From the sequence record PQ850619.1: a stretch of DNA of 43,265 nucleotides; one strand, 5' to 3'. The stretch comes from Escherichia phage MarieHeimVoegtlin_Bas70. The position numbers were made by a program, and so were the translations under genes. Of this stretch, positions 3,315 through 41,365 are shown in pieces (within the stretch, counting starts at the first letter, position 1; every line of letters starts with the position of its first letter). The notes under the pieces were generated by a model. That model saw only the letters and a program-made list of their open reading frames with translations. It was not told the origin of the DNA and made no database searches.

Positions 3315-3336
3315 AGCCCCGAAAGGGGCTTTCTTA
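3315..3336 (+). terminator. hairpin with GAAA loop followed by TTCTT
   Basis: agcccc-gaaa-ggggct stem-loop followed by a short T-run, directly after the portal stop. Confidence 0.45.
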
Positions 3337-3373: not shown

Positions 3374-4417
3374 ATGAGCTTACTTACATCCCTAATCAGC
3401 CATCAGATATGGCTGCAACGCACCGCATCCGGTGAGGTGAAAGACCTCACGCCGTTCATTCAGGAGATAAGGGATGAAATCAAACGGCAGGTGCTGTTAT
3501 TCGGTGACGACGGTCGCAGCACTGCGCGACTGAATAAACTGTTACGCGACCTGGAAGAAGCACTAACCGGTATTACGGGTGACTGGCAAACAAAGCTAAC
3601 AGACGACCTTAAGGAACTGGCGGCGTACGAGGCTGAGTGGAACGTAAAGACACTGACCGCCAACGTAGACGCGGAATTTGTTACGCCTACCGCTGAGCAG
3701 GTATGGGCCGCTGCCGAGTTTCAACCATTATCATTGAGCGACAAGCCCGTTGATTTCACCAAGCTGATGTCTGGATGGGGCGAAACGGAAGTAGCACGTC
3801 TTGTAACTGGAGTTAAGATGGGCTTTGTGCAAGGTCAAACCACACGGCAGATTGTTAAGAATGTTGTTGGCGCTGGTGGACTAGCCGACATCTCAGAACG
3901 TAACGCGACTACGGTAATCCGCACCGCGCTGTCCCACGTATCCAACGAGGCCCGTAACGAGACGTACCGCCAGAACGACGACATCATCGAGAAGTACGAG
4001 TGGGTGTCAACGCTTGACAGCCGCACCAGTACGATTTGCAGGGTCAGAGACGGGATGACGTGGGAAATTGGTAAGGGGCCGATGCCCCCAGCCCATCCGA
4101 ACTGCCGGTCGTGCACGGCTCCGGTAATCAGTTCCGAGTTCGACTTCCTCGATAAAGGCGCAAAACGCGCGGCTAAAGGCGCGGAAGGTGGCACTCAGGT
4201 AAGCGCAGACACCACTTACTACGAGTTCCTTAAACAACAACCGGCGTGGTTTCAGGACCAGGCGCTCGGCCCGGTGCGAGGTAAGATTTTCCGTAACAGC
4301 GGTATATCGCCGGAAGAGTTTCGCGTAATATCTGTAGATGGTTTCGGGAATCCGCTCACGCTTAAGCAGATGGCGGAACTCGATAAACGTGTTGCTGATT
4401 ATCTGAAAGGGGAATAA
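3374..4417 (+). CDS. head morphogenesis protein (Mu F-like / SPP1 gp7-like minor head protein)
   Basis: 347 aa ORF after the portal gene, the usual position of this family. ATG start. Confidence 0.65.
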   Translation: MSLLTSLISHQIWLQRTASGEVKDLTPFIQEIRDEIKRQVLLFGDDGRSTARLNKLLRDLEEALTGITGDWQTKLTDDLKELAAYEAEWNVKTLTANVDAEFVTPTAEQVWAAAEFQPLSLSDKPVDFTKLMSGWGETEVARLVTGVKMGFVQGQTTRQIVKNVVGAGGLADISERNATTVIRTALSHVSNEARNETYRQNDDIIEKYEWVSTLDSRTSTICRVRDGMTWEIGKGPMPPAHPNCRSCTAPVISSEFDFLDKGAKRAAKGAEGGTQVSADTTYYEFLKQQPAWFQDQALGPVRGKIFRNSGISPEEFRVISVDGFGNPLTLKQMAELDKRVADYLKGE

Positions 4418-4878
4418 TGATGGGCTTTTTCAAAGTAACTGACGTACCGTCTCGTCGCGTAGTCCAGTACGCCCGCGTGTCTGGCTCTGGCGAGAACGTG
4501 GTATTTATTGAGGACGAAAGTGTACTCGGTACACCGGTAGATGATATGCCGTTTGCAGATAAAACCGGTATTGCGTTGCCCGCCGCCGGTATGCTTTATG
4601 AAATTCCGTATCTGGCGGACGCTGGCGACGTGTATTTCTCTGCGCAACCGCAGGACGCTGAACTGGCGGGCGGCAGCGCAACCATCACTGTCGAGGTTAA
4701 GGCAGGCAAAGCGCCGTATTCTCTGACCTGGTACAAAGACGGTAAGGAAGTGGTGAATGCGCCTGAGGAGGCTCTGTCTCTGACGGTTAATGCGGTCGGC
4801 GAATACTTCGTTAAAGTTACTGATGCCGATGGAGTAGAGGCGGTAAGCAAAGCGGCGAAGGTTACTAAGCCAGAATGA
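4417..4878 (+). CDS. Ig-like domain protein (possible capsid decoration or accessory)
   Basis: 153 aa. C-terminal segment KAPYSLTWYKDGKEV...GEYFVKVTDADG matches the Ig-like strand pattern also seen in the 8189-8539 protein. TAATG overlap with the upstream gene. Confidence 0.5.
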   Translation: MMGFFKVTDVPSRRVVQYARVSGSGENVVFIEDESVLGTPVDDMPFADKTGIALPAAGMLYEIPYLADAGDVYFSAQPQDAELAGGSATITVEVKAGKAPYSLTWYKDGKEVVNAPEEALSLTVNAVGEYFVKVTDADGVEAVSKAAKVTKPE

Positions 4879-4883
4879 TAAAA

Positions 4884-4908
4884 GGCCCCATTATGGGGCC
4901 TTAGTTTT
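4884..4908. terminator. bidirectional intrinsic terminator
   Basis: ggcccc-attat-ggggcc hairpin flanked by AAAA on the 5' side and TTAGTTTT on the 3' side. Sits between convergent genes ending at 4878 (+) and 4908 (-). Confidence 0.6.
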
Positions 4909-5111
4909 CAACGGAATCTTGTGTTTAAATCCTGCTCATGGACAACCCTCAGAACAGTGTCATAATCCCCGTATCTTCCAGGTTCAAATATATCTAATGC
5001 CTTGTAAGCAGACATTGCGTCAGGGAAAACCTGCAGAACCTTTTTAACCCGGCACAAGTCACCGTCGAACTCTTCATCGAACTCTTGAACTACTTCGCAA
5101 ATTGCATACAT
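4908..5111 (-). CDS. hypothetical protein (antisense moron in head module)
   Basis: 67 aa. ATG with strong AGGAGGTG Shine-Dalgarno. Own promoter at 5136-5167 and terminator at 4884-4908. Opposite orientation to the surrounding structural genes. Confidence 0.55.
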   Translation of the reverse strand: MYAICEVVQEFDEEFDGDLCRVKKVLQVFPDAMSAYKALDIFEPGRYGDYDTVLRVVHEQDLNTRFR

Positions 5112-5135
5112 TTTTCACCTCCTGTTTAAGTTAAC

Positions 5136-5167
5136 TGAATAGTACCCTATTATATTGGGGTGTGCAA
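5136..5167 (-). promoter_or_regulatory. sigma70-like promoter (TTGCAC-N17-TACTAT) with embedded AATAG-N4-CTATT palindrome
   Basis: Read on the minus strand: TTGCAC, 17-nt spacer accccaatataataggg, TACTAT. The 32-bp block is identical to 14240-14271. Confidence 0.55.
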
Positions 5168-5442
5168 ACTATTTATTTACGTATTCCAGTTATTCCTCCG
5201 AATTGTAAATGTTGGAATAAACTATTCGAATAGTTGACTTTTCACTAAAAATATGATAAGCTCCACCTGAGCTTGTGAAGTATGAACAAGCGACCGCGGC
5301 GCGGGCAGGTAACGGAGCGGGACGTAAGTCCTGAGTGTAGTTACGCTGACGCGTTCGGAAGGGCCATACTCTATTGCTTGTGTAAAAAGTAACTGGTTTA
5401 CTGAGATTACGCCGTTTCTATGTTTAAATGATAAGGACTAGC

Positions 5443-5469
5443 GCCCCGCTTTATGGCGGGGCTTTACTT
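5443..5469 (+). terminator. hairpin, weak terminator or attenuator
   Basis: gccccgc-tttatg-gcggggc perfect 7-bp stem followed by TTTACTT, just upstream of the spanin gene Shine-Dalgarno. Confidence 0.35.
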
Positions 5470-5486
5470 ATCGAGAAAGGGGAAAC

Positions 5487-5873
5487 ATGAATCTTAAAGC
5501 AACTGTCGTAGCAGGAGCATGTTTCATCATCCTGGTTTACGCACACGGCATCTACCAGTATCGCAGCGGATGGAACGAAGGCCGGGCTAATCTCGTTTCG
5601 CAGCAACAGCAGAAAGCACAGGCTGAGTTAGCGAAGAAAACACAACGGCAGCAGCAGGATGAATCGAAGGCCGCCGCCGCTGACAACGAAGGCAAGACGA
5701 AATCAGAGGTGATTACCCGTGAAGTCGTTAAGTACATTAAAACGCCTGGTCGCAGTGTGTGCGCTTTTGACCCTGAGCGCGTGCAGCTCAAGTCCCGCGC
5801 CGTCGCAAACGCCAACTCCATCCCCGGATACGACGATGATGCAGCCGCCGTGCAAACTGGCACCGCCAAGTAG
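5487..5873 (+). CDS. i-spanin (Rz-like inner membrane spanin)
   Basis: 128 aa. N-terminal transmembrane segment ATVVAGACFIILVYAHGIY. Then a Q/K/E-rich predicted coiled-coil periplasmic region. An overlapping +1-frame lipoprotein gene follows. Confidence 0.6.
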   Translation: MNLKATVVAGACFIILVYAHGIYQYRSGWNEGRANLVSQQQQKAQAELAKKTQRQQQDESKAAAADNEGKTKSEVITREVVKYIKTPGRSVCAFDPERVQLKSRAVANANSIPGYDDDAAAVQTGTAK

Positions 5874-5982
5874 CGACGCCGACGAGGATTTGGCTATCGA
5901 CGTTCAGAACGCTGAATGTGTACGGCAACTGAGGCTGAAAGTGTTTATGTTGCAGGATTACGTGAGGAATATTCTGGAATAG
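5719..5982 (+). CDS. o-spanin (Rz1-like outer membrane lipoprotein)
   Basis: 87 aa. GTG start with AGAGGTGA Shine-Dalgarno. Signal peptide ending in lipobox LSAC. Proline-rich mature region SSSPAPSQTPTPSP. Starts inside the i-spanin gene in another frame and extends past its stop. Confidence 0.55.
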   Translation: MKSLSTLKRLVAVCALLTLSACSSSPAPSQTPTPSPDTTMMQPPCKLAPPSSDADEDLAIDVQNAECVRQLRLKVFMLQDYVRNILE

Positions 5983-6064
5983 TTGCCTTGCATGTTGGAA
6001 TAATTTATTCTTGACATGTAAATCCGGGTGGCCCGGGTTCCAACGTCCAGGGGACATACTGACT

Positions 6065-6769
6065 ATGAATCGTTTTTTACGTTATCCGTTCCAGGAAGAA
6101 GCTGGGGCAGAAGATAAAGCTGGTGGCGGTGACGCGCCGAAAATGTTCACCGCTGAAGAAGTTCAGGCGCTGATTGAGAAAGAAGTTGCCGGGCTTAAGG
6201 CTAATCAGGAAGCATTGTTGGCGGAGAAGAAAGAAGCCGCTCGCAAAGCAAAAGAGGCCGAAGAAGAACGGCAGCGCGCGCACCAGGAGGCGTTAAAAGC
6301 CGCTGGTAAGATGGACGAGTTCGAAAAGACGATTCGTAGCCAGTATGACCCGGTGTTAGCCGAGAAAGACGGTCGCATCTCCAGAATGGCAGAGCGTATC
6401 CTCGGCAGCGAACGTAAAGCGGTGCTAGGCTCTTTCGCGGGTGACTTTATTACCCCGGAAGCAGTGGACATTCTTGCGCCGTTCGTTAAGACTGAGTTCG
6501 AAGGCGATGATGTGGTTACTAAGTTTGTTGGTGCAGACGGTAACGTAATCACGACTGACCCGGAACAGTTCCGCAAATACCTGCGCGAACACAAGGCGTT
6601 TTCGCATTTGATTAAAGCAAATGCAGCTTCCGGCGGCGGGGCTTCCGGTAGCAAAGGCGGCGGGGCCGCACCAGCGTTTAAAGACATGAGTGAAGCGGAG
6701 CGTATCGCTCTGTACGAATCGAACCCTGCCGAATTTGAACGGCAACTTAAAGCCCTGAGGAAAAAATAA
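6065..6769 (+). CDS. scaffolding protein (putative)
   Basis: ATG at 6065 with AGGGGA Shine-Dalgarno; track ORF begins upstream at 6011. Charged A/E/K-rich helical sequence. Immediately precedes the capsid gene with an ATGA overlap. Confidence 0.5.
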   Translation: MNRFLRYPFQEEAGAEDKAGGGDAPKMFTAEEVQALIEKEVAGLKANQEALLAEKKEAARKAKEAEEERQRAHQEALKAAGKMDEFEKTIRSQYDPVLAEKDGRISRMAERILGSERKAVLGSFAGDFITPEAVDILAPFVKTEFEGDDVVTKFVGADGNVITTDPEQFRKYLREHKAFSHLIKANAASGGGASGSKGGGAAPAFKDMSEAERIALYESNPAEFERQLKALRKK

Positions 6770-7818
6770 TGGCAATTACTACTATCGGCGACATCGTAAC
6801 TGGTAAAGAATCGGTAATCCTGTCCTACATGACAGAGGACCCGGTAGAGAAAACCGCGTTCTTCCAGTCCGGTATCCTTACCTCGACTCCGTATGCCGCC
6901 GCTATCGCAAACGGCCCGTCCAACAAAGCGGTCCTGCCGTACTGGAAAGCTATTGATACCTCTATCGAGCCGAACTACTCGAACGACGTATATCAGGACG
7001 TCGCCACCCCGCGTAACGTGCAAACCGGTGAGATGGATGTTCGCGTAGCTTACCTGAACGAAGGTTTTGGTCAGGCTGACCTGACGGTAGAACTGACCAG
7101 CCAGAATCCGCTGCAATCCGTGGCTTCCCGTCTGGATAACTTCTGGCAGCGTCAGGCACAACGCCGTCTTATTGCTACCGCGCTCGGTCTGTACAATGAC
7201 AACGTAGCGGCTACCGATGCATACCACGAGCAGAATGACATGGTGATCGACGTTTCCGCTACTATGGGCTTCGACTCCGGTGCGTTCATCGACGCTACCC
7301 AGACTATGGGTGACGCGCTGATGGGTAACGGCGGTGAAGTGCTGGGGGCTATCGCGATGCACAGCTTCGTTTATGCGCAGGCTCGTAAGCAGCAGCTTAT
7401 CGACTTCATCCGTGATGCTGACAACAACACCATGTTCGCCACCTACCAGGGCTACCGTGTGATTGTTGACGACAGCATGACCGTAGTCGGTACTGGCGGC
7501 AGCCGTAAGTTCATCTCCATCATCTTCGGCAACGGCGCTATCGGTTACGGTGAAGGTTCTCCGTCAAACCCGCTGGAATACGAGCGCGAAGCGTCTCGCG
7601 GCAACGGCGGTGGCGTCGAAACCCTGTGGACCCGTAAGACCTGGTTGCTGCATCCGTTTGGTTACAGCTTCACCAGCGCAGTAATCACTGGCAACGGCAC
7701 CGAGACTATCGCCCGCTCTGCTTCATGGCAGGACCTGGCGAACGCTTCCAACTGGAACCGCGTTGTTGAGCGTAAGCATGTACCGATTGCCTTCCTGGTA
7801 ACTGGTGTCGGGGCTTAA
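6769..7818 (+). CDS. major capsid protein
   Basis: 349 aa ORF after the scaffold gene, followed by a strong hairpin terminator. Call rests on position and size. Confidence 0.65.
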   Translation: MAITTIGDIVTGKESVILSYMTEDPVEKTAFFQSGILTSTPYAAAIANGPSNKAVLPYWKAIDTSIEPNYSNDVYQDVATPRNVQTGEMDVRVAYLNEGFGQADLTVELTSQNPLQSVASRLDNFWQRQAQRRLIATALGLYNDNVAATDAYHEQNDMVIDVSATMGFDSGAFIDATQTMGDALMGNGGEVLGAIAMHSFVYAQARKQQLIDFIRDADNNTMFATYQGYRVIVDDSMTVVGTGGSRKFISIIFGNGAIGYGEGSPSNPLEYEREASRGNGGGVETLWTRKTWLLHPFGYSFTSAVITGNGTETIARSASWQDLANASNWNRVVERKHVPIAFLVTGVGA

Positions 7819-7834
7819 GGTTAAGATATAATCG

Positions 7835-7862
7835 AGAGGGACTTCGGTCCCTCTTTTCATTT
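7835..7862 (+). terminator. intrinsic terminator (UUCG-loop hairpin plus T-run)
   Basis: agagggac-ttcg-gtccctct followed by TTTCATTT, directly after the capsid gene. Confidence 0.6.
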
Positions 7863-8575: not shown

Positions 8576-8755
8576 ATGGCAGATAATTATGTAATCCGCG
8601 AAAAGTACACCCACGTTGATGTTGTTGACGGTCAGGTTATGCCCGTTCGCGGTGTTGTAGAAGCGGATGAACTGGTAGCGGTTCAACCGGACAACGAAGA
8701 AGCGCACAACAACGGCGGTGGCACTAAGCGTCGCCGCCGTAAGTCAGAGGAATAA
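8576..8755 (+). CDS. hypothetical small protein (59 aa)
   Basis: ATG with AAGGAAAGG Shine-Dalgarno. Basic C-terminus KRRRRK. Tightly packed between neighbouring genes. Below the ORF-track length cutoff. Confidence 0.4.
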   Translation: MADNYVIREKYTHVDVVDGQVMPVRGVVEADELVAVQPDNEEAHNNGGGTKRRRRKSEE

Positions 8756-40178: not shown

Positions 40179-40487
40179 TTGGATAAATTTACTGAAACAG
40201 TGACAGGCTGGCTTCTCGCTGCCGCACTAGCCGGAGGGGTAATCGGACTAAGGCAACATAAGTCCGCTATTTCCGGCCCTATCGACGGCTTCTGCTTTAT
40301 TGCAACTGGCTTCACTTGCGCCGTATTTGGCGCACCTCTCGCAGCTCAATGGTTTGGAATCACGGGCGACCGTGAAATCGCAGGCCTGGGCTTCATTATC
40401 GCTATGCTCTGGACGCCTATCTATTCCCGTCTGTCCGGTATCGTCGCCGGAGAATACATCGCACGTCGAGGAGGCCCGGATGAATGA
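40179..40487 (+). CDS. putative holin (three hydrophobic segments)
   Basis: 102 aa. TTG start 8 nt after GGAGG. Hydrophobic segments TGWLLAAALAGGVIGL, FCFIATGFTCAVFGAPLAA, AGLGFIIAMLW. Two genes upstream of the endolysin. Confidence 0.5.
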   Translation: MDKFTETVTGWLLAAALAGGVIGLRQHKSAISGPIDGFCFIATGFTCAVFGAPLAAQWFGITGDREIAGLGFIIAMLWTPIYSRLSGIVAGEYIARRGGPDE

Positions 40488-40752
40488 GTTATTCTGGTTC
40501 TGCGGTATGCTGGCAATCGGAGGCACATCGCTGTTTAATGTGTATCATCCCAGCGTTGACGACGGGCTATTTGGCCGGGTGCTCTATATCCTGACTGCTA
40601 TTGTCTGCGCCGCAGGATGTATCCACCTGTTACAGGGCAGCATGTCTCCGACGCTGCCTGAGACATTAATCACATTAGTTGCGCTGCGCCAGATTCGTCA
40701 GGCGTGGCTGTCATACGGAGGACATAAGCGTGTCTCGAAATATTTCAGATAA
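40480..40752 (+). CDS. small membrane protein (second holin-like or antiholin candidate)
   Basis: ATG at 40480 with AGGAGG Shine-Dalgarno (track ORF starts further upstream at 40300). Two hydrophobic segments. Overlaps the holin stop and the endolysin start. Confidence 0.4.
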   Translation: MNELFWFCGMLAIGGTSLFNVYHPSVDDGLFGRVLYILTAIVCAAGCIHLLQGSMSPTLPETLITLVALRQIRQAWLSYGGHKRVSKYFR

Positions 40753-41218
40753 TGGATTGCATTTCACCGCTGCGTTCGAGGGATTCCGCGGAACTGCATA
40801 CCGCGCTACGCCGAACGAGAAGTACCTGACTATCGGGTACGGGCACTATGGGCCGGACGTAACCCCGGGTAAGACCATCACACCGGGGCAAGGCCTCCTG
40901 TTACTGAATCGCGATATGGCTAAGGCCGTAGCTGCGGTTGATGTGGCGGCACACCATTCGCTGACACAGGCACAGTTCGACGCTGTGTGCGACCTGGTCT
41001 ATAACGCCGGTGCTGGTGTGATTGCAGCTGCTACCGGCACAGGAAAGGCGCTGCGTTCTGGTGACATCGCGACACTGCGGGCTAAACTGGCGCTGTTTAT
41101 CAACCAGAACGGCAAACCGTTACTTGGTCTGCGCCGCCGTACTGCCGGGCGTCTTGCACTGTTTGACGGCAAGCCGTGGCAGGAGGCGGGGGCCATTGGG
41201 CGCGCGGTGAAAGGTTGA
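40729..41218 (+). CDS. endolysin, glycoside hydrolase family 24 lysozyme
   Basis: GTG start at 40729 (track ORF begins 40679). Motifs NGLHFTAAFEGFRGTAYRATPNEKYLTIGYGH, TQAQFDAVCDLVYNAG and C-terminal LLGLRRRTAGRLALF match the phage lysozyme pattern. Confidence 0.75.
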
Positions 41219-41282: not shown

Positions 41283-41315
41283 ATCCCGGCCCTGACCCAG
41301 CCGGGATTTTTTTTA
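41283..41315 (+). terminator. intrinsic terminator
   Basis: atcccggc-cctgaccca-gccgggat hairpin followed by TTTTTTTT, after the endolysin gene. Confidence 0.7.
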
Positions 41316-41336: not shown

Positions 41337-41365
41337 TTGACTATTACCTACGACCCTATTATATT
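41337..41365 (+). promoter_or_regulatory. sigma70-like promoter (TTGACT-N17-TATATT)
   Basis: TTGACT at 41337-41342, 17-nt spacer, TATATT at 41360-41365. About 35 nt upstream of the gene at 41399. Confidence 0.5.

Follow-up and report, generated by a model that had tools for sequence, protein, structure and literature searches.

How does an overlapping pair of spanin genes come to lie among the head genes of a phage, far from its holins and endolysin, and does this position mean that disruption of the outer membrane is timed on its own? The question is raised by a stretch of 43,265 nucleotides (nt) from Escherichia phage MarieHeimVoegtlin_Bas70 (PQ850619.1), the whole of which is called the window here. 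In it, the genes of an inner-membrane spanin (i-spanin) and of an outer-membrane spanin lipoprotein (o-spanin) share part of their DNA between 5487 and 5982. A first reading of the same DNA, the original prediction, had named the pair, placed it in the head gene region, and concluded that the lysis functions are split into two transcription units with separate timing control of outer membrane disruption. The analysis reported here makes it very probable that the pair is a two-component spanin of the Jersey family, which is located in the head module, is carried on a late head-gene transcript, and leaves the timing of lysis to the holins.

The i-spanin gene occupies 5487-5873 on the plus strand, starts with ATG, and encodes 128 amino acids (aa) with a conserved Cys92. 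It was recognized in the list of open reading frames (ORFs) and by PHROG, in which phrog_2536, 'Rz-like spanin', matches the protein over its full length (E=6.6e-57). A single hydrophobic segment was found, at residues 3-19 with a Kyte-Doolittle (17) value of 2.08, and no other, which bears out the N-terminal transmembrane segment that had been proposed. An AlphaFold (AF2) model of the monomer, built from the single sequence, showed one long helix from residue 3 to residue 64 with predicted local distance difference test (pLDDT) scores of 77-93, and residues 68-128 scored below 50, so that the C-terminal half is not confidently modelled. The periplasmic part of Jersey-family i-spanins has been described as two helices and a beta-strand linker (Kongari et al. 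2018, PMC6139136). By tblastn, the i-spanin is 100% identical to that of Bas76, 95% to the K1G Rz-like spanin, and 63-67% to those of SETP3 and SETP7. Pfam gave sub-threshold matches only for both spanins, including DUF2514 at E=0.007, under its cut-off.

The o-spanin gene lies at 5719-5982 on the plus strand in the +1 frame, starts with GTG, and encodes an 87-aa precursor; it overlaps the i-spanin gene by 155 nt and runs 109 nt beyond the i-spanin stop. A Shine-Dalgarno-like GAGGTG, read from the sequence, is found at 5706-5711 on the plus strand, 7 nt 5' of the GTG. The signal peptide, MKSLSTLKRLVAVCALLT, is composed of a basic n-region, a hydrophobic core and a signal peptidase II (SPase II) lipobox L-S-A-C, in which Cys22 (codon 5782-5784) is followed by Ser, not Asp, at +2. 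The mature protein of 66 aa contains nine Pro, with a Pro-rich linker, and a conserved C-terminal domain. Two PHROG spanin families match it: phrog_5672 over the C-terminal 47 residues (E=4.4e-30) and phrog_1267 over residues 9-86 (E=3.6e-20). Both o-spanin Cys45 and Cys67 (precursor numbering) and i-spanin Cys92 fall in the predicted periplasmic parts, where they would be free to form disulfides between the two proteins. The original prediction of a spanin pair overlapping in different frames, the second member being a proline-rich lipoprotein with the lipobox LSAC, was accurate on each of these points, as the ORFs, the PHROG families, the 155-nt overlap and the lipobox attest.

Relatives were collected by scanning IMG/VR with the i-spanin, which returned 48 loci (given L numbers below) at 63-98% identity. 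One of them, L049, holds the 3' part only and was excluded from the frame analysis, leaving 47 readable loci. Inspection of the lipoprotein frame in relatives had been proposed along with the prediction, and the +1 frame proved open from GTG or ATG to the same C-terminus in all 47, down to about 60% identity. The lipobox Cys was kept in every one of them, within a box that reads LSAC, LASC (a one-residue shift), LSGC, LNGC or ITGC. The ratio of nonsynonymous to synonymous polymorphism (pN/pS) was computed on 40 distinct sequences sharing identical gene geometry. In its own frame, the part belonging to the i-spanin only gave 0.30. The overlap gave 0.41 when read in the i-spanin frame and 1.02 when read in the o-spanin frame. 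The part belonging to the o-spanin only gave 0.10 in its own frame and, as a control, 2.5 in the i-spanin frame, and the wrong-frame controls span 1.07-2.5. Based on these values, both spanin genes are under purifying selection.

The o-spanin reading has to be defended against public annotation. The BASEL GenBank records place the start of the o-spanin at an internal ATG (5839-5982), giving 47 aa with neither signal peptide nor lipobox, and several recent GenBank records, those of BASEL Bas71-76 and others, carry this truncated 'spanin' or no o-spanin at all. Such records speak for a product confined to the 47-aa C-terminal piece from ATG 5839, and the o-spanin-frame pN/pS of about 1 over the overlap speaks for the ORF at 5719-5982 being a chance frame, only the 128-aa protein being real. 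A chance frame would not be expected to stay open from GTG or ATG in every readable locus, to keep its lipobox Cys invariant amid changing neighbours, even through the register shift from LSAC to LASC, to be preceded by the GAGGTG ribosome-binding site, or to be aligned by phrog_1267 from residue 9 to residue 86. The 47-aa form, lacking a signal peptide, could not reach the periplasm, and the long form is the one used by the K1G RefSeq record and by Kongari et al. Both versions of this alternative are therefore extremely improbable. The correct o-spanin gene is 5719-5982, encoding 87 aa, as backed by the K1G RefSeq record and by conservation. The practical use of this result is the correction of the o-spanin start in public records; it is the sole correction that arises, and it concerns the BASEL records.

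Variation of the pair was also seen among relatives. The o-spanin of L037 has a different N-terminus and overlaps the i-spanin gene by 14 nt only, and the overlaps in TS6 and SenTO17 are 8 nt. Mosaic o-spanins of this kind, with an unrelated N-terminal signal region, an overlap of 8-14 nt and the conserved C-terminal domain, are present at 4001-4589 of L037 and at 2501-3089 of L052 and L053, and they agree with the 'separated' variant FSL_SP-031 of Kongari et al. (PMC6139136). Between phages of E. coli and of Salmonella the spanin proteins are 60-68% identical, and the adjacent scaffold and major head proteins are 87-92% identical (L034-L048 compared with window 5487-7818). This much greater divergence of the spanins would fit adaptation to the host envelope or exchange of the module.

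The position of the pair is constant too. Over positions 4300 to 7000 the window shows 93-98% identity to many phages of Escherichia that belong to the genus Kagunavirus (Guernseyvirinae), with BASEL phage Bas75 as the top match, and its first 25 kb are 94-97% identical to Bas71-76 at a coverage of 92-100%. Since the small terminase gene comes first in the window, as in the Bas71-76 records, the window is probably a complete genome with a layout like theirs. In 48 of the 48 IMG/VR loci, and also in K1G, Hafnia phage TS33, TS6 and SenTO17, the spanin pair has a Hoc-like decoration gene on one side and the scaffold and major head genes on the other; none of the 48 has a homologue of the holins or the endolysin less than 4 kb from the spanins. 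In the window, two holin-family genes are located at 40179-40487 and 40480-40752 on the plus strand (phrog_2359 and phrog_2508, 'holin'), where hydrophobic segments and the Bas75 annotation agree with the assignment. They are followed by the gene of a soluble, lysozyme-type endolysin at 40730-41218 on the same strand (phrog_7 and phrog_33703, 'endolysin'), which has no N-terminal hydrophobic or signal-arrest-release (SAR) segment. Across the window ends, 7,533 nt lie between the endolysin stop and the start of the i-spanin, close to the 7.6 kb first claimed; the other way round the distance is 34.2 kb. The placement of the pair in the head gene region, far from a holin and endolysin block at 40179-41218, is thereby confirmed, and the 7,533-nt gap and an intervening terminator at 41285-41314 mean that no contiguous lambda-type cassette of holin, endolysin and spanins is formed.

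A gene pair in such a place might also be an accessory of the envelope (a moron), such as a superinfection-exclusion lipoprotein together with a partner in the membrane, and have no part in lysis. The pair does adjoin a slot of variable insertions and has a promoter-like site of its own. Unlike the variable ORFs next door, it is universal, and every relative examined has it at a fixed position. Furthermore, paired i- and o-spanin topology, overlapping genes and conserved periplasmic Cys are diagnostic of two-component spanins, and no other spanin candidate stands beside the holin and endolysin genes. A moron is accordingly quite unlikely, and the pair is best taken as the spanins of this phage. 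By analogy, their presumed function is the disruption of the outer membrane.

The slot itself, 4879-5213, lies between the terminator of the Hoc-like gene and the promoter-like site upstream of the spanins. Across relatives, the Hoc-like and i-spanin genes are separated by a gap of between about 346 and about 1,100 nt. The reverse-strand ORF of 67 aa found there in the window (4908-5111; phrog_27256, with no assigned function) is present in only four of the loci examined.

Whether the two lysis loci are transcribed together was judged from transcription signals. A strong intrinsic terminator, read from the sequence, is located at 41285-41314 on the plus strand, 67 nt after the endolysin stop. 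It consists of CCCGGC, a 9-nt loop and GCCGGG, a 6-bp GC stem, followed by A and T8; the terminator scan missed it because its loop is longer than 8 nt. Directly 3' of it, a consensus scan gave a promoter-like TTGACT-17-TATATT at 41337-41365. Further along, the scan gave a terminator-like hairpin after the portal gene (3315-3330) and a terminator-like palindromic hairpin after the Hoc-like gene (4882-4902). Upstream of the spanins, a promoter-like region was read from the sequence at 5214-5262 on the plus strand, with the palindrome GAATA-AAC-TATTC at 5215-5227, a -35 element TTGACT at 5234-5239, a 17-nt spacer and an extended -10 element TG-a-TAAGCT at 5254-5262. The site at 5234-5262 keeps a fixed spacing in the Kagunavirus and Jerseyvirus loci, and TGnTAAnCT is also found in TS33, TS6 and SenTO17; the consensus scan missed it because the -10 hexamer has only three of six matches. 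From the terminator after the endolysin, the two terminator-like hairpins, the reverse ORF at 4908-5111 and this promoter-like site, it is plausible that the spanins belong to a transcription unit separate from that of the holins and endolysin, so that this part of the original claim stands as far as signals in the DNA can carry it. Downstream, no terminator was found on the way from the spanins to the scaffold gene; the hairpin at 6021-6039 lacks a U-tract, and the next good terminator lies at 7834-7855, after the major head gene. Because no terminator intervenes from the spanins through the scaffold and major head genes until 7834-7855, the pair most likely rides, to judge by these predicted signals, on a late head-gene transcript.

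A separate unit is not yet a separate clock. It could be argued that the spanins are their own regulated unit and that disruption of the outer membrane is timed independently of the holins and endolysin, since predicted terminators and the reverse ORF part the two loci, and since dedicated control could come from a conserved promoter-like site with its operator-like palindrome and from a conserved structured leader that has a hairpin at its end. As no terminator stands between the spanins and the scaffold and capsid genes, such control would extend over the whole head operon. In the lambda model, spanins accumulate harmlessly and act only after the holin has triggered and the peptidoglycan has been degraded; it is the removal of peptidoglycan that gates them, not their synthesis, and a timer for the spanins themselves is not needed. 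The homologous pair of Dhillonvirus overlaps a head-morphogenesis gene and has no leader of its own. In addition, the RNA-seq study of Kagunavirus K1B4, the sole one in the genus, places lysozyme and head genes in one temporal class, 'middle'. If a late spanin-scaffold-capsid transcript begins with the spanins, there is no reason to postulate independent timing at the outer membrane. Independent timing is thus improbable, and the claim of separate timing control is not supported.

With a late head-gene transcript and holin-set timing as the preferred reading, the following course of events is proposed. Transcription would start from the promoter at 5234-5262, pass via the structured leader into the spanin, scaffold and major capsid genes, and run to the terminator at 7834-7855, so that the spanins would accumulate during late gene expression while the holins at 40.2-40.8 kb would set the timing of lysis. 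Judging from features of the sequences and from homology to the family, the i-spanin would be held in the inner membrane by its N-terminal helix, with the long helix extending into the periplasm. The o-spanin would be translated from the internal GTG in the +1 frame and lipidated at Cys22, and because Ser rather than Asp occupies +2, it would be sorted to the outer membrane. Following the paradigm of lambda Rz/Rz1, the two proteins would join in a periplasm-spanning complex, which would fuse or disrupt the outer membrane only after holin triggering and the endolysin have removed the peptidoglycan barrier.

Four points weigh against this account. The function of Jersey-family spanins is assigned from topology and from the analogy with lambda. 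The o-spanin frame, with a pN/pS of about 1.0 across the 155-nt overlap, leaves the signal peptide and linker loosely constrained. A GC-rich hairpin at 5443-5462, between the promoter-like site and the i-spanin gene, could end most transcripts before they reach the spanins, in which case the assignment of the promoter and the co-transcription with head genes would both be wrong. Finally, the K1B4 RNA-seq paper and its supplements, when searched for the timing of spanins, make no mention of spanins.

The region in front of the pair deserves attention in its own right. Between the promoter-like site and the i-spanin start lies a non-coding leader that is conserved between Kagunavirus and Jerseyvirus. 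Its structured part, at 5271-5367 on the plus strand, is composed of a hairpin P0 (5271-5291) and a 77-nt extended hairpin (5291-5367) with the helices P1, P2 and P3. Minimum-free-energy folds of single sequences give the same layout in both clades, and a comparable one in TS33, TS6 and SenTO17. Compensatory changes in the leader hairpin were seen in the variants of L010, L016 and L027 and in the Jerseyvirus clade. A covariance model built from Kagunavirus sequences only scored 107.7 bits at the 5291-5367 hairpin and found no further copy of it in the window, the next best score being 12 bits. The same model found the Jerseyvirus versions, which were not in its seed, at E values of about 1e-5 to 1e-6; at E<=1 it did not detect the hairpin in the distant clade of TS33, TS6 and SenTO17. 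In the alignment fitted to the model, 95% of cells are paired, as against 25-40% when the partners are slid, and double changes occur at 11 of 23 pairs, a count that none of 500 shuffles reached. Such an alignment leans towards structure, so that these pairing figures lend support without being conclusive. According to invariant G-U pairs, the structured RNA lies on the plus strand.

Known RNA families gave no account of the leader. An Rfam scan of 4800-6200 at E<=1 returned no leader match and only a chance small nucleolar RNA (snoRNA) match inside the scaffold gene, and a scan of the window for transfer RNA (tRNA) and transfer-messenger RNA (tmRNA) found none. The K1G RefSeq record leaves the leader gap unannotated. 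A 36-aa ORF at 5282-5392, annotated in Bas75 as 'hypothetical protein' (Bas75_0007), was considered as the cause of the upstream conservation and rejected, its ATG and frame being lost in Jerseyvirus through non-triplet indels; this ORF, inside the leader, is probably not a gene.

At the 3' end of the leader, the scan gave the GC-rich, terminator-like hairpin at 5443-5462 on the plus strand, which lies 24 nt before the i-spanin ATG and has a predicted energy of -17.9 kcal/mol. This hairpin covaries, with compensatory C-G, G-C, U-A and A-U changes. The U-tract after it is weak, UUUACUU, in Kagunavirus and only UU in Jerseyvirus, and for this reason the hairpin may be a leaky terminator or no terminator.

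One copy of the palindrome GAATA-N3-TATTC stands just 5' of the -35 element, and another lies in the gap between spanin and scaffold genes; the half-sites are conserved and the centre varies, and by its sequence the palindrome looks operator-like. In the spanin-scaffold intergenic region (5997-6039, plus strand), the second copy of the palindrome, GGAATAATTTATTC, occupies 5997-6010 and is followed by TTGACA at 6011-6016 and a hairpin at 6021-6039. It is an exact second copy of ATGTTGGAATAA..TATTC..TTGAC with no usable -10, and the palindrome is identical in Jerseyvirus. The hairpin at 6021-6039 is conserved, and its base covaries in Jerseyvirus. The region could be an operator, a processing site or the remnant of a promoter. 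TTGACA at 6011-6016 was rejected as a second promoter because no acceptable -10 lies at 16-18 nt and because it reads TTGTTA in Jerseyvirus. The palindrome GGAATAANNTATTC was also rejected as a genome-wide late-promoter motif: it gave 14 matches across the genome compared with 3 expected, and none is convincing apart from the two exact sites on either side of the spanins, the site at 8749 (one mismatch) being the context of a ribosome-binding site and ATG and the rest having two mismatches.

Taken together, the conserved promoter, the covarying 77-nt hairpin and the 3' hairpin may make up an unannotated leader that is new. The put RNA of phage HK022 forms two adjacent stem-loops just downstream of its promoter and acts in cis on RNA polymerase, which then reads through terminators. 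The leader described here has two adjacent predicted stem-loops after a promoter-like site and before a terminator-like hairpin. It is conceivable, as a tentative proposal from sequence, that the stretch of about 200 nt at 5214-5486, which carries no annotation, represents a new cis-acting regulatory RNA leader of Guernseyvirinae that would gate the spanin-scaffold-capsid operon, for example through antitermination of the put type, factor-dependent attenuation at 5443-5462, or stabilization or processing of the messenger RNA. If true, a late operon under special control would begin with the spanin genes. If the leader were found to govern late transcription, a group of phages widely used for therapy and biocontrol would have a new RNA element, and the conserved leader could then matter more than the spanin result.

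The spanin result itself, compared with known systems, is correct and ordinary. The pair belongs to the overlapped 'Jersey' spanin family, already published and annotated, and the window is another Kagunavirus isolate in which nothing substantive is different. Kongari et al. 2018 (PMC6139136) defined this family with 27 two-component spanins of overlapped architecture, including those of K1G, K1H, K1ind1-3, Jersey, SETP3 and SETP7, with a 155-bp overlap and constant o-spanin Cys45 and Cys67. The gene pair, the 155-bp overlap and both Cys are the same here, and the low-overlap 'separated' variant, represented in that paper by FSL_SP-031 with 8 bp, has its counterparts in L037, TS6 and SenTO17 among the present loci. 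The K1G RefSeq record annotates both genes at equivalent positions, the second, of 264 nt, being labelled 'overlapping gene'. Separation of the pair from the holin and endolysin was stated in the 2019 Schulenberg genome note (PMC6763661), and in the Golestan paper the spanins are ORF7-8 and the holins and endolysin ORF66-68. The arrangement is therefore not new.

Nor is dispersal of lysis genes as such. The spanin genes of T4 do not lie near its holin and endolysin genes (Kongari et al. 2018, PMC6139136), and PseT.3/PseT.2 are a long-known precedent for what is seen here, although they are separated, do not overlap, stand outside the head module and belong to another sequence family. The present result confirms that lysis genes need not cluster, as has been known since T4 and is on record for this group of phages. 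LysB/LysC of P2, the prototype of the overlapped architecture (PMC6139136), share that architecture with the present pair and differ in lying inside a contiguous lysis cassette and in belonging to another sequence family. Rz/Rz1 of lambda resemble the pair in combining a type II inner-membrane protein with an outer-membrane lipoprotein whose gene uses the +1 frame of the same DNA, and in the presumed role as the final step of Gram-negative lysis. Rz1 is fully embedded in Rz, whereas the o-spanin here extends 109 nt past the i-spanin stop; Rz/Rz1 follow S and R in one cassette, whereas the present pair is in the head module, 7.5 kb from the endolysin; and no significant sequence similarity links the two pairs.

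A further comparison is the pair of Dhillonvirus, which belongs to the HK578/EP23 subgroup of the Jersey family (JLBYU60 genes 5 and 6; L055 3312-3753) and is homologous in the C-terminal part of the i-spanin. It too is overlapped and is located between head-morphogenesis and scaffold genes. It differs in that it directly overlaps the head-morphogenesis gene, has neither promoter nor leader of its own, and is separated from the scaffold gene by two reverse-strand genes. Since the JLBYU60 pair also resides in the head module, the head-module site of this spanin family predates Guernseyvirinae.

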